From a plasmid, in the sequence record NC_017345.1: a stretch of DNA of 24,491 nucleotides; one strand, given 5' to 3'. Below the pieces are notes generated by a model, which saw nothing but the letters and a program-made list of their open reading frames with translations, did no database searches and was not told where the DNA came from. Shown piece after piece: positions 9,019 through 23,517 of the stretch; within the stretch, counting starts at the first letter, position 1, and every line of letters starts with the position of its first letter. Made by a program: the position numbers and the translations under genes.

Positions 9019-9563
9019 TATAGTGAGAACTTCTGGTAATCATCGATTATGTAAACTAATAAAAGGAGGAGTATTATGAAAACAGGTCCACTGAAATGTC
9101 CAAAATGTAACCAAGATTTATATATAAAAAAAGTTAGGTATCCAATATCTGATATTGAAACATTATGTTAACCACATAAAAAGCCCGAAACACTGATTTA
9201 ACGGTGTTTCGAGCTTTTTATCAACGATATCGGGTATGCATCTTTTATACATTTCCCTAAATGACGTGTTTTCATTATTTTTTCATCAACAACTATTTTG
9301 TATCTTTATTCAGTTATGATTTCTTTTCGCCAATCCAAAATTGAGAAAATGAATATCTTGATAGCCTTCTTTGATAACATATTTTGTAGCTTCTTATCTT
9401 TGATTGCCAAACATCATTTATCCCATCTTTTGTAGTTTTTTGTCTTTAGTACATAAAAATACTTTTTGGCTTTCATGTTATTTTATGGAAGGAGAGATTT
9501 GTTATAATGTTAGAGTCGTCTATCTCTCAGACGTCAACTTGACGTAGAGAGGAGGTGCGATTT

Positions 9564-9659
9564 ATGAATGAAATTCTTGTTCACATCATGACAACAGTAA
9601 TTAGTGGTTGTCTGGTCACGTTATTTGGTTATTGGCTCCATAAACGCGATAAAAAATAG
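9564..9659 (+). CDS. type I toxin peptide of the Fst/PepA1 (sprA) family, 31 aa MNEILVHIMTTVISGCLVTLFGYWLHKRDKK
   Basis: Similar to the second copy at 23301-23393 and to remembered PepA1 (MLIFVHIIAPVISGCAIAFFSYWLSRRNTK). Preceded by a TATAAT promoter and a 5'UTR in which cgtctatctctc can pair with gagaggagg (Shine-Dalgarno sequestration). Confidence 0.7.
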   Translation: MNEILVHIMTTVISGCLVTLFGYWLHKRDKK

Positions 9660-9684
9660 CATAGACGACTAAGTCAATTCACCA

Positions 9685-9752
9685 AAAAACCCCGAACTAC
9701 GGCCAATAGTTCGGGGTTTGGTGCGTTTACAAACGAAATTCTTGTTACTTTT
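9685..9752 (-). ncRNA. SprA-AS-like antitoxin RNA: promoter TTTACA-17-TATACT on the minus strand, bidirectional terminator 9688-9722; carries acaagaatttcgtt complementary to the toxin start-codon region
   Basis: Promoter and terminator read directly. 12-14 nt complementarity to 9566-9580 (aatgaaattcttgt) fits the established trans-like pairing mode of SprA1AS to the sprA1 RBS/start. Confidence 0.6.
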
Positions 9753-9873
9753 AGTATATATTCCATATTGCCTTTTGTAAACTTTTCTATTCTTATCAAT
9801 TCATTTCAAGGTGTCATAAAAATGTTTTCCTTTTTTAATTATGACTGACATTCCTTAAATTTCAATTTCAAAA

Positions 9874-21386: not shown

Positions 21387-23155
21387 TTATATTAAATTTA
21401 CATAATTTAAATCTATGAGTGGTACTTTTTCTTCTAATAATTCACTAAAAAATTCATCCACATTATCTTTTGAATTAATATAATTCCAGTTTAAATCGCT
21501 CTTATATCCTTTCTGATTTGAACCATATTTTTGACTCATGCAATAACTATTAATTTCTTTTTTTGAAATCACATTTTCTTTTATTAAATAGTAAATAAAG
21601 TATCTGAAATACCATAAATTTTGCGACATTACACCTACTGTTGCAGGATAATCATCCTTAGAATTTTTAAATAGATTATCAATTTTTTTTAATAAATTTT
21701 CTATTTTCCAAGACTTTCTTAGATATATTATTGTCAATAACGATAGAGATAAGTTATCTGTATTTTCATTTAGCAAACTCAAAACATCATTTTTTAAAAG
21801 AATATCTACATCATATTCAACAATATAAACAAGAATTTGGTATGTTTCTTGATGATAATTATTTTTATTATAAAATACTAACAATTTTCTAATTTCTTCG
21901 TTTCTATTTTTAAAATACTGTTTAACTTGTTTTGAGACTATTTTTTTATCGTCCATTTTAATAGTCAAATAGTTTAATAAAGATAGGCATCTATTTGTTA
22001 ATTTAGAGTCTTTTAGTGATAAATCTAATATGAATTGCAAGATATTGAATTTAGTAATATTATTCCTATATCCAAATATCTTACTTATTTGATGTTTATT
22101 TATTTTTTTCTTCTTTAAAGTATTTTCTATTACTGGGAAAATACTTTTTATTGCCCCTTTATTTCCTTTTCTTTCTTCATCTATACATAAATCAATAAAG
22201 TTCTTAATACCTATAATCCAAGTTTCATCTTTACTATTTGAGGAATAATTTTTGAAATAATTAAATATAAAGTCTTTGTTTTGTGGATGTATATATGGAA
22301 AATCATTTACTTCAGTTTTCTTGTCATTAATTTTTAATTCATATTTCATACATAGTTTGTTAAAATCTCTGTAAAATTTATCTTTCTCTTCTTCAAAATT
22401 AAATGAGAATGATATGTCATCCACATATCTCGCATATCTATACCCTTTATTTTCCATTTCAGAATCAATATAACACATATATAATTCACTAATAATACGA
22501 CTTAATATGTTGCCAGTAGGTATTCCATGAGTTTGATTATATTGACAGGATGTAATTAATTTATCTAATTGATTTGAAAAACCTTTCTTTCTTTTTTAGC
22601 ATTCTTCTTTCCCATTATTACCCAAGGTATGCTATGTGTATAAAGAGAATGATAAAAATTAGATAAATCAACGTTTAATATATGATTACCACCGTAAAGT
22701 AAAGTCTTTTTTAAATTGTCAGTAAATTTAAAATCAAAATCTGGAAGTGAAAAAAATTTAGATGTTGAAAATTTATTGGTTAGAAAAACTTCTTTAAATT
22801 CTTTTTTATTTTCTTGCATGAAAAACATCAAATTTAAATAGCTATAAATATTAGGAATCTTATATTCTCTTCTTGATGTATTATTTTTCGGAATAGTAAA
22901 TATTATTGGTTCAGTACTACGTATGTTTCTATCATTAAAAAATTTTTTAATGTAAAATGGATTATAAGTAATATATTCAGCTAATTTACTCATATTAAAT
23001 ATTTTCAAATAAAATGCATCTGATTTACCGTAGCTGTTTAATTCTGTTAAATCTTGATTATTTTTAGGAGTAATATCAAAATAACCATAATTAATTAAAA
23101 AATTAGTACTAAATAAATCATCGTACAATCTTTCCATTCTTTTTTTACTCTTCAT
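21387..23155 (-). pseudogene. Abi-type single-protein reverse transcriptase (~590 aa if read through): an N-terminal RT domain with motifs 1-5, then a ~300-aa K/N/Y-rich alpha-helical C-terminal domain. Broken by a -1 frameshift in an A6 run (22592-22597)
   Basis: Track ORFs 23155-22565 and 22478-21387 belong together. Motifs: FTIPKNNTSRREYKIPNIYSYLNLMF (1/2), NVDLSNFYHSLYTHSI (3), THGIPTGNILSRIISELYM (4, found by extending the downstream frame upstream across 22479-22595), RYARYVDDISFSF (5, YxDD). Reading A7 instead of A6 joins …GKKNAKK-KGFSNQLDKLITSCQYNQTHGIPTGN…. Confidence 0.75.
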
Positions 23156-23207
23156 AGCCTTTCTCCTACCTTTGCATTTCTCTACTAACCAGTGTTATAA
23201 TTTATAT

Positions 23208-23272
23208 AACGAAAATGATTAACAATTAATGCACCAATCCCCACACTATTGCAGTAGTGTGGGGATTTTTTC
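23208..23272 (+). ncRNA. SprA1AS-like antitoxin RNA: promoter TTGCAT-18-TATAAT (23181-23210), ~60-nt RNA ending at bidirectional terminator aatccccacactattgcagtagtgtggggatttttt
   Basis: Read directly. The RNA carries aacgaaaatgattaacaa, which matches the DNA around the toxin start codon (23376-23393, gtgaacgaaaatgattagcaa) and so is complementary to the toxin mRNA there. Confidence 0.6.
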
Positions 23273-23300
23273 GATGCTGGCTTATAAAGTCGCCTATTAA

Positions 23301-23393
23301 TTATTTGTTGCGTTTACTAAGCCAATAAGTATAATACGCAACAGCACAGCCACTGATGACTGGTGCTATGATGTGAACGAAAATGATTAGCAA
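23301..23393 (-). CDS. PepA1-like type I toxin, 30 aa (TTG start) MLIIFVHIIAPVISGCAVAYYTYWLSKRNK
   Basis: Near-identical to remembered S. aureus PepA1 (MLIFVHIIAPVISGCAIAFFSYWLSRRNTK). GAGGAGG Shine-Dalgarno; the 5'UTR can fold (cgcctatctctc / gagaggagg) to occlude the RBS; TATAAT promoter at ~23445. Confidence 0.75.
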   Translation of the reverse strand: MLIIFVHIIAPVISGCAVAYYTYWLSKRNK

Positions 23394-23517
23394 AGTAATG
23401 CACCTCCTCTCTTCGTCGATTGACGCCTGAGAGATAGGCGACTCTATTATTATACCATCTGTGAATATACAAGCATATCTACTTCCGATAAGTCGTCTTA
23501 TGTTATATAACTTCGTT

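Follow-up and report, generated by a model that had tools for sequence, protein, structure and literature searches.

The plasmid sequence analysed here (24,491 nucleotides of record NC_017345.1, referred to as the window) represents a mosaic Staphylococcus aureus penicillinase and cadmium-resistance plasmid, which matches staphylococcal plasmids over its full length with 95-99.6% identity. Positions 23172-23460 of the window are confirmed, at the level of sequence, as a complete type I toxin-antitoxin (TA) cassette of the par/Fst family, which very probably works by the mechanism proposed below. The anatomy of the sequence, the family to which the encoded peptide belongs and the thermodynamic complementarity between the two RNAs provide direct support, as do the pairing partners, which co-vary, and the RNA helices, which are conserved among homologues. 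An initial interpretation made from the nucleotide sequence alone (the sequence-only reading) described the locus as a complete TA system of the sprA1/SprA1AS type. Its completeness and its placement in the Fst/par type I family, which includes sprA1, were borne out, but the module is not sprA1 itself, with which it shares 71% nucleotide identity as a paralogue.

Anatomy of the toxin-antitoxin cassette

The toxin is encoded on the minus strand by an open reading frame (ORF) from the program-made ORF list (23301..23393; stop codon at 23301-23303), which starts with TTG and specifies the 30-amino acid peptide MLIIFVHIIAPVISGCAVAYYTYWLSKRNK. The sequence-only reading had placed a 30-amino acid peptide with a TTG start on this strand, and this ORF is present at 23393..23301. 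The peptide incorporates a PxxxGC motif (APVISGC) and a basic C-terminal tail (KRNK), and displays the features by which Fst-like toxins are recognised, namely a length of approximately 30 amino acids, a hydrophobic helix, the PxxxG(C) motif and a charged C-terminal tail. The NCBIfam model NF033608 (type I toxin-antitoxin system Fst family toxin) recognises it with 58.2 bits, well over the cutoff of 26 (E 5e-16), and an identical ORF is represented in RefSeq as the Fst family toxin WP_001791613.1, while a Pfam search with the peptide returned no match at E<=0.01. The peptide can also be aligned with PepA1 (PDB 4b19; E 5e-13), but with 21 of the 28 aligned residues identical (75%) it cannot be termed "nearly identical" to the latter, as had been proposed. 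A 51-amino acid overlapping ORF (23317..23472, minus strand) and 23-amino acid ORFs on the plus strand were rejected as by-products of the reading frame.

Two convergent promoters, one for each of the RNAs, can be recognised in the sequence and are conserved in the homologues. The antitoxin promoter on the plus strand consists of the -35 hexamer TTGCAT (23172..23177), read directly from the sequence, and the extended -10 element TGtTATAAT (23193..23201), of which the TATAAT hexamer (23196-23201) is situated 18 nucleotides (nt) past the -35. Both elements are invariant, as the reverse complements ATGCAA and ATTATA, in an alignment of four loci including sprA1 (alignment A1), and the -10 element was also observed in twelve plasmid homologues. 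The plus-strand promoter TTGCAT-18-TATAAT recognised previously is thus present at 23172-23201; its description as near-consensus does not hold for the -35, which matches TTGACA at only 3/6 positions. The toxin likewise has its own -10 promoter, as claimed, in the form of an extended element on the minus strand (TGgTATAAT, 23457..23449), where ATGnTATAAT is invariant in alignment A1; no recognisable or usable -35 accompanies it. A scan for consensus promoters listed neither of the module promoters, as both -35 hexamers match fewer than 4/6 positions, and the two were accepted because each has an extended -10 element and is conserved in the homologues.

A hairpin of 14 bp with a 4-nt loop (23236..23267), detected both as inverted repeat I2 and in the terminator scan, serves as the putative shared terminator for both strands and is followed on the plus strand by a T-run (23266-23271). 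Two terminator-like sites occur in the region, compared with 0.2±0.5 in shuffled sequences, the second being a plus-strand hairpin at 23424-23440. Of the shared bidirectional terminator postulated earlier the hairpin is present, but a U-tract is found on the antitoxin strand only. Termination in both directions would therefore follow from homology with sprA1 and par, and the placement of the toxin mRNA 3' end at this hairpin draws on the published length of sprA1. The hairpin loop occurs in either orientation among otherwise near-identical cassettes, with the 32-mer at 23236-23267 of the window showing a 100% match to the opposite strand of seven loci (L014, L018, L027, L032, L033, L038 and L039).

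The predicted antitoxin RNA, which is the equivalent of RNA II and SprA1AS, would extend over approximately 64 nt of the plus strand (23208..23271), with its start deduced from the -10 element and its end from the terminator. The RNA of approximately 60 nt suggested by the sequence-only reading is in keeping with this prediction, including its termination at the hairpin and T-run. Its layout comprises a single-stranded 5' interaction domain (23208-23235; approximately 28 nt unstructured), followed by the hairpin and a U-tail. Fold predictions, which had been put forward as a check, proved far better than shuffled sequences for both RNAs, with a predicted 66-nt plus-strand RNA folding at -23.6 kcal/mol (z = -5.95) and a 211-nt minus-strand RNA at -73.5 kcal/mol (z = -6.30).

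The interaction domain represents the antitoxin copy (23208..23235, plus strand; repeat families D1 and D2) of a pair of direct repeats equivalent to DRa and DRb, with positions 23208-23225 repeated at 23376-23393 and positions 23224-23235 at 23393-23404. Since transcription reads the two copies of these adjacent repeats in opposite directions, the antitoxin is complementary at its 5' end to the toxin translation-initiation region (23376..23407, minus strand), in which the toxin copy of the repeats lies together with the Shine-Dalgarno sequence GGAGG (23407..23403) and the TTG codon (23393..23391). The duplex between the first 29 nt of the antitoxin and the Shine-Dalgarno-start region has a predicted energy of -31.7 kcal/mol, compared with -7.9±2.3 kcal/mol for shuffled sequences, none of which (0/1000) reached this value, and extends from the final bases of GGAGGUG across the UUG codon and the five codons that follow it. 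The claim that the 5' part of the antitoxin is complementary to the start-codon region of the toxin can thus be retained in full.

The toxin mRNA is predicted to start at G23442 with GUCGCCUAU (23434..23442, minus strand), where the GTCG at the start is invariant in 31 homologues. This sequence forms the 5' arm of a long-range upstream helix, in which the first 9 nt of the mRNA (23442..23434) pair with a 3' arm at 23284..23292 (minus strand; inverted repeat I4). In the minimum free energy folds it is followed by a 5' stem-loop (23407..23433, minus strand), where CUCUC (23433..23429) pairs with GAGAG (23411..23407) and encloses a CGUC/GACG hairpin. Helices that tie up the mRNA 5' end and the Shine-Dalgarno sequence are thus present, with firm pairing in the 5' stem-loop confined to the 5' flank of the latter (GAGAG and the first G of GGAGG). 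For this reason the description of the 5' untranslated region (UTR) as sequestering the ribosome-binding site is only partly true, as the stem-loop pairs this flank but does not cover the whole of the Shine-Dalgarno sequence.

Conservation and co-variation among homologues

Twelve diverged plasmid homologues, with 40-90% peptide identity, were selected and, together with the window, provided thirteen loci for a duplex test. A degenerate DNA pattern scan of species-representative genomes, among the returns of which there was no S. aureus representative, added a further twenty-six loci, and the pooled loci yielded thirty-one distinct toxin-mRNA sequences. The same order of parts was observed in 11/12 of the diverged plasmid homologues, the exception being the degenerate locus L003. 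This order comprises the extended -10, the GTCG... start, the leader stem-loop, GGAGGTG, the ORF, a GCGAC box with the hairpin, the GGTG... repeat copy, and the reverse complements of TATAAT and TTGCAT. The sequences of the direct repeats vary between loci, but change together within each locus. Across the thirteen loci, the cognate duplexes between initiation region and antitoxin averaged -32.3 kcal/mol, while non-cognate combinations averaged -15.3±5.6 kcal/mol, and the cognate antitoxin ranked first in 11/13 loci, with the near-duplicate pair L006/L009 and the degenerate L003 forming the exceptions.

The helices are likewise conserved. RNAalifold analysis of the thirty-one homologues paired the first 8 nt of the mRNA with the 3' UTR (columns 1-8 with 158-165), two of these pairs being altered in both partners, and the pairs of the terminator stem are kept, with changes on both sides at four positions. 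The 5' stem-loop was not drawn by RNAalifold, where two sequence classes are offset by one column, and this helix was counted with an anchored script. It is pairable in 31/31 homologues, compared with 17% of the time for such a 5-mer in shuffled leaders, and the switch between CUCUC/GAGAG and CUUCC/GGAAG in the leader stem amounts to two pairs changed on both sides. Two relatives, L003 (NZ_CP066489.1) and L041 (IMG/VR), retain the toxin ORF, terminator and antitoxin gene, while the toxin promoter and leader have been swapped for unrelated sequence.

Relationship to sprA1/SprA1AS and to pAD1 par

For comparison, the true sprA1 locus, containing the exact PepA1 ORF, was taken from an IMG/VR contig (L040). 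The window module is collinear with this locus feature for feature (71% nucleotide identity), and the two appear to share an antitoxin of approximately 60 nt, an overlap with the mRNA at the 3' hairpin only, and a 5' domain that targets the translation-initiation site. The sprA1 RNAs predicted from L040, which measure approximately 203 nt (counted up to where the hairpin ends) and approximately 64 nt, agree with the published sizes, where SprA1 is 208 nt in length and has a 35-nt 3' overlap with SprA1AS (PMC3861533), and on this basis the same RNA boundaries were applied to the window. The two modules differ in that the one in the window is plasmid-borne, while sprA1 is located in a chromosomal pathogenicity island. 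Furthermore, the window peptide has one additional N-terminal residue and is initiated with TTG rather than the ATG of sprA1, and the interaction sequence of the window module is distinct. Duplexes across the two systems reach only -11.6 kcal/mol for SprA1AS on the window initiation region and -20.3 kcal/mol for the window antitoxin on that of sprA1, compared with -31.7 and -35.4 kcal/mol, respectively, for the cognate duplexes of the window and sprA1.

As the interaction domains differ and the cross-duplexes are weaker than the cognate ones, the window module is, judged by its sequence, a plasmid paralogue of sprA1/SprA1AS and is predicted to be insulated from the chromosomal sprA1 system, with no cross-reaction between them. 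This prediction is in agreement with experiments in which no cross-regulation between sprA1 and sprA2 was found (PMC6393315). Orthology with sprA1 was ruled out by the peptide identity to PepA1 (21/28 residues), the 71% nucleotide identity, the different interaction sequence and the plasmid location. VRSAp carries two other Fst paralogues, and the window allele WP_001791613.1 corresponds to neither of these. The sequence-only reading further attributed to the module exactly the pairing mode described for SprA1AS. The geometry, with an overlap in the hairpin and a 5' domain acting on the start, is indeed the same, but such pairing is the general par/Fst mode, of which convergent RNAs, direct repeats and a shared terminator are characteristic (PMC7472228, PMC4885055).

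Similar correspondences exist with par of the Enterococcus faecalis plasmid pAD1 (Fst; RNA I - RNA II) and the staphylococcal par-like loci. These include convergent promoters, the shared terminator hairpin, a plasmid location, and a pair of direct repeats that underlies pairing of the antitoxin 5' end with the toxin initiation region. They also extend to the 5' stem-loop at the Shine-Dalgarno sequence, the helix between the 5' and 3' ends, and an Fst peptide with the PxxxG(C) motif and a charged tail. By contrast, the peptide and repeats of the window differ in sequence, the repeats being poorly conserved family-wide, and there is no obvious U-turn (YUNR) motif in the window terminator loop. 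The TTG start codon and the lack of a -35 in the toxin promoter are further differences.

Proposed mechanism of action

Following the literature on this family (PMC7472228, PMC4885055, PMC6393315), the minus strand would give rise to a toxin mRNA of approximately 207 nt from the extended -10 promoter. This mRNA would be stable and poorly translated on account of the helix between its 5' end and 3' UTR, to which the 5' stem-loop, by pairing the upstream edge of the Shine-Dalgarno sequence, may contribute, and the weak TTG start may further limit translation of the toxin. From the plus strand, a convergent promoter which is predicted to be stronger (-35 TTG and extended -10) would produce the antitoxin RNA of approximately 64 nt, with the two RNAs overlapping at the shared terminator hairpin only. 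The free 29 nt at the 5' end of the antitoxin, a diverged direct-repeat copy of the toxin initiation region, would engage the toxin mRNA from the 3' part of its Shine-Dalgarno sequence, through the start codon, to the end of the first five codons, such that ribosome loading is blocked. Upon loss of the plasmid, the short antitoxin would be expected to decay first, and once it is gone the 30-amino acid membrane peptide would be made and harm the cell (post-segregational killing). Transcription of the module, the RNA ends, the relative stabilities of the RNAs, toxicity and plasmid stabilisation are here drawn from the literature on pAD1 par and sprA1/sprA2.

Several observations weigh against this interpretation. 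The TTG start codon of the toxin is weak, and the pairing probability of the GGAGG core ranges from 0.38 to 0.99, with part of it only partly paired (0.38-0.78). The hairpin carries its U-tract on the antitoxin strand alone, and the terminator scan flags only a plus-strand terminator. The span of the Rfam fstAT match disagrees with that of the inferred antitoxin RNA, the two having approximately 22 nt in common. Furthermore, natural variants from which the toxin has been deleted are common, and at least some plasmid backgrounds can therefore do without the toxin. Finally, the exact 30-amino acid peptide sequence is absent from the literature searched, which contains no expression or toxicity data for the allele. 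Since no paper in this literature contains the exact peptide, the plasmid allele appears to be without prior experimental characterisation.

Distribution of the cassette

The cassette is widespread among plasmids. Matches to the 461-bp region were found in 1,286 plasmid records, with an identity of at least 99% in 233 of these, and the identical cassette occurs in hundreds of plasmids. A tblastn search of plasmids with the peptide yielded 1,573 records, of which approximately 1,095 differ by the TTG-encoded first residue alone. Where the cassette occurs in unrelated contexts, the homology begins at 23171 or 23193 and stops near 23503, and on this evidence the TA module is delimited as a discrete cassette of approximately 333 bp (23171 to approximately 23503). 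In one survey, Fst-type TA systems were found in 33% of methicillin-resistant S. aureus plasmids, mostly in two copies (PMC10135026), and descriptions of Fst-type type I TA modules on plasmids of staphylococci go back to 2009-2010 (Weaver 2009; Kwong 2010; Jensen 2010, cited via PMC4885055 and PMC7472228). The plasmid named "pSK1" in PMC3543317 is an unrelated cloning vector and was disregarded. Given that approximately 1,300 plasmid records carry the cassette, that RefSeq names the Fst toxin and that the Rfam fstAT model matches, it is a known and routinely annotated element, which shows no departure from the Fst family.

The staphylococcal Fst cassette was also observed in contigs labelled as Exiguobacterium, Streptomyces, Nonomuraea, Mesorhizobium, Moraxella and Gemella (L018, L021, L023, L032, L033, L039, L015 and L036). 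Some of these contigs are short and have low coverage, and the presence of the cassette in contigs with off-genus labels likely represents assembly contamination.

The AbiK-type reverse transcriptase neighbour

Outside the TA cassette, downstream of the toxin gene and in tandem with it on the same strand, a reverse transcriptase (RT) gene of the AbiK family is located (21387..23155, minus strand). An intact 590-amino acid homologue of this RT (pWBG759) is matched end to end by PADLOC AbiK (E 5e-214). The window copy does not maintain a full-length reading frame, but is frameshifted and split into ORFs of 196 and 363 amino acids; tblastn analysis shows the change of frame, which results from a 4-nt deletion at approximately 22582/22583, where (CTTT)3 has become (CTTT)2. 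In other plasmids, RT spans differing by 1-8 nt and split annotations are found. Repeated independent frameshifts of the RT gene, or slippage at simple repeats, are suggested.

In terms of orientation, the sequence-only reading regarded the TA module as divergent from the RT. The toxin gene is, however, co-oriented with it and only the antitoxin RNA is divergent. The antitoxin promoter was correctly placed within 50 bp of the RT start, with 16 nt separating the RT start codon (23155) from the -35. The RT is encoded in 195 plasmid records, compared with approximately 1,290 with the cassette, and thus accompanies approximately 15% of cassettes, while 11/12 of the diverged plasmid Fst paralogues have unrelated neighbours; a conserved TA-RT operon as a general rule was ruled out on both these counts.

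Among the RT-bearing plasmids, 71 retain an intact TA module beside the RT. Most of the remainder, a class whose size was estimated by subtraction, share an exact 169-bp deletion (window 23227-23395), by which the hairpin and the entire toxin ORF are lost and the toxin promoter and leader are joined to the RT. The deletion can be ascribed to recombination between the two direct repeats. For example, it is found at positions 1900-1930 of L043 (pSaD592, NZ_CP062379.1), and the same 792-nt configuration occurs in many 27.2-kb plasmids. The deletion plasmids share the RT frameshift of the window, and no combination of an intact TA module with this frameshift was found among the best 60 records. 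The compact stabilisation/defence islet envisaged for the two loci is thus neither a conserved unit nor intact here, as the RT stands beside a minority of cassettes and is frameshifted in the window, and the toxin is often deleted.

A functional coupling of the module to the AbiK-type RT can nevertheless be envisaged. Transcripts of the RT would arise either from toxin transcription that reads through or from a promoter internal to the cassette, and the TA RNAs would gate an abortive-infection gene as part of a single stabilisation/defence unit. Cassette homology stops at 23171, 16 nt from the RT start, too close for an RT promoter to fit outside the cassette, and on the toxin strand the hairpin has no U-tract. 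In addition, the RT and cassette are adjacent even in lineages at 81-88% identity (L002, L015), and in the common 169-bp deletion variant the RT follows immediately after the toxin promoter and leader, the intervening hairpin being gone. However, approximately 85% of the cassette-bearing plasmids are without the RT, the neighbours of eleven of the twelve sampled plasmid Fst paralogues are unrelated, and the RT is frameshifted in both the window and the deletion variants. Judging by the mapped length of sprA1, moreover, 3' ends are formed at the corresponding hairpin even though a U-tract is missing there. Considering this balance of evidence, such coupling is rather unlikely.

Alternative readings of the cassette

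The cassette could also be an inactive remnant, or be silenced by the chromosomal SprA1AS, and would then not constitute an independent addiction module. The weak TTG start, the commonness of toxin-deleted variants and the degenerate relatives L003 and L041, which lack the toxin promoter and leader, are compatible with this, as is the reported 35- to 90-fold excess of SprA1AS over its target (PMC4885055). However, all functional elements are intact in the window module and the peptide is identical in more than 1,000 plasmid records. The cognate duplex matches that of sprA1 in strength (-31.7 vs -35.4 kcal/mol), while SprA1AS on the window region attains just -11.6 kcal/mol, and experiments revealed no sprA1-sprA2 cross-regulation (PMC6393315). 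Inactivity or silencing of the cassette is accordingly considered very unlikely.

The Rfam model RF01797 (fstAT) matches the plus strand at 23250-23350 (88.5 bits; gathering score 72; E 6e-16). The match starts inside the terminator loop, with model positions 1-22 corresponding to the 3' half of the hairpin and the U-run, after which it is antisense to the toxin 3' UTR and last 16 codons, and the interaction domain near the antitoxin promoter is left largely uncovered. As it has only the above-mentioned 22 nt or so in common with the RNA delimited by the promoter, the covarying repeats and the terminator, it was treated as a marker of the locus and not as the boundaries of the antitoxin. That the real antitoxin is a longer plus-strand RNA covering this span, cis-antisense to the 3' half of the toxin ORF, is highly improbable: the match does exceed the gathering threshold on the plus strand and the second terminator-like hairpin (23424-23440) could end a read-through product, but approximately three quarters of the model lies beyond a canonical intrinsic terminator with no promoter ahead, the conserved promoter (23172-23201) and the covarying repeats (23208-23235) fall outside the Rfam span, the published overlap of SprA1AS and sprA1 is just 35 nt (PMC3861533), and coding constraint on the toxin C-terminus can explain the conservation within the span.

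A second Fst/par-type module in the plasmid

A second complete Fst/par-type module is located at 9486-9790 of the window and encodes the toxin MNEILVHIMTTVISGCLVTLFGYWLHKRDKK. Its toxin mRNA is predicted at approximately 9515-9719 on the plus strand, with an ATG at 9564, and its antitoxin at approximately 9720-9790 on the minus strand, with the promoter TTTACA-17-TATACT. This module was missed by Rfam at the gathering threshold. Cross duplexes between the two modules reach -11.7 and -11.4 kcal/mol, compared with -31.7 and -35.1 kcal/mol for the cognate duplexes, and the second module is predicted to be orthogonal to that at 23172-23460.

Implications

The discovery value of the cassette is small, as the NCBI pipeline names the toxin routinely. 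Its practical yield is threefold: the module is confirmed by means of a clean comparative test of RNA-RNA co-variation; the Rfam fstAT coordinates prove unsuited as antitoxin boundaries; and the neighbouring RT is redefined as an AbiK homologue that runs in the same direction as the toxin gene, carries a frameshift in the window and is linked to the cassette only occasionally. Given the lack of space for a promoter outside the cassette and of a U-tract behind the hairpin on the toxin strand, transcription of the RT from inside or through the cassette can be contemplated. There is a slim chance that, in plasmids where the RT is intact, it has no dedicated promoter and owes its expression to toxin transcripts that continue past this hairpin. 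Were this the case, the antitoxin promoter and RNA would also set the level of an abortive-infection gene, and the frequent direct-repeat deletion, which puts the RT behind the toxin promoter and leader, would represent a natural rewiring of this unit.

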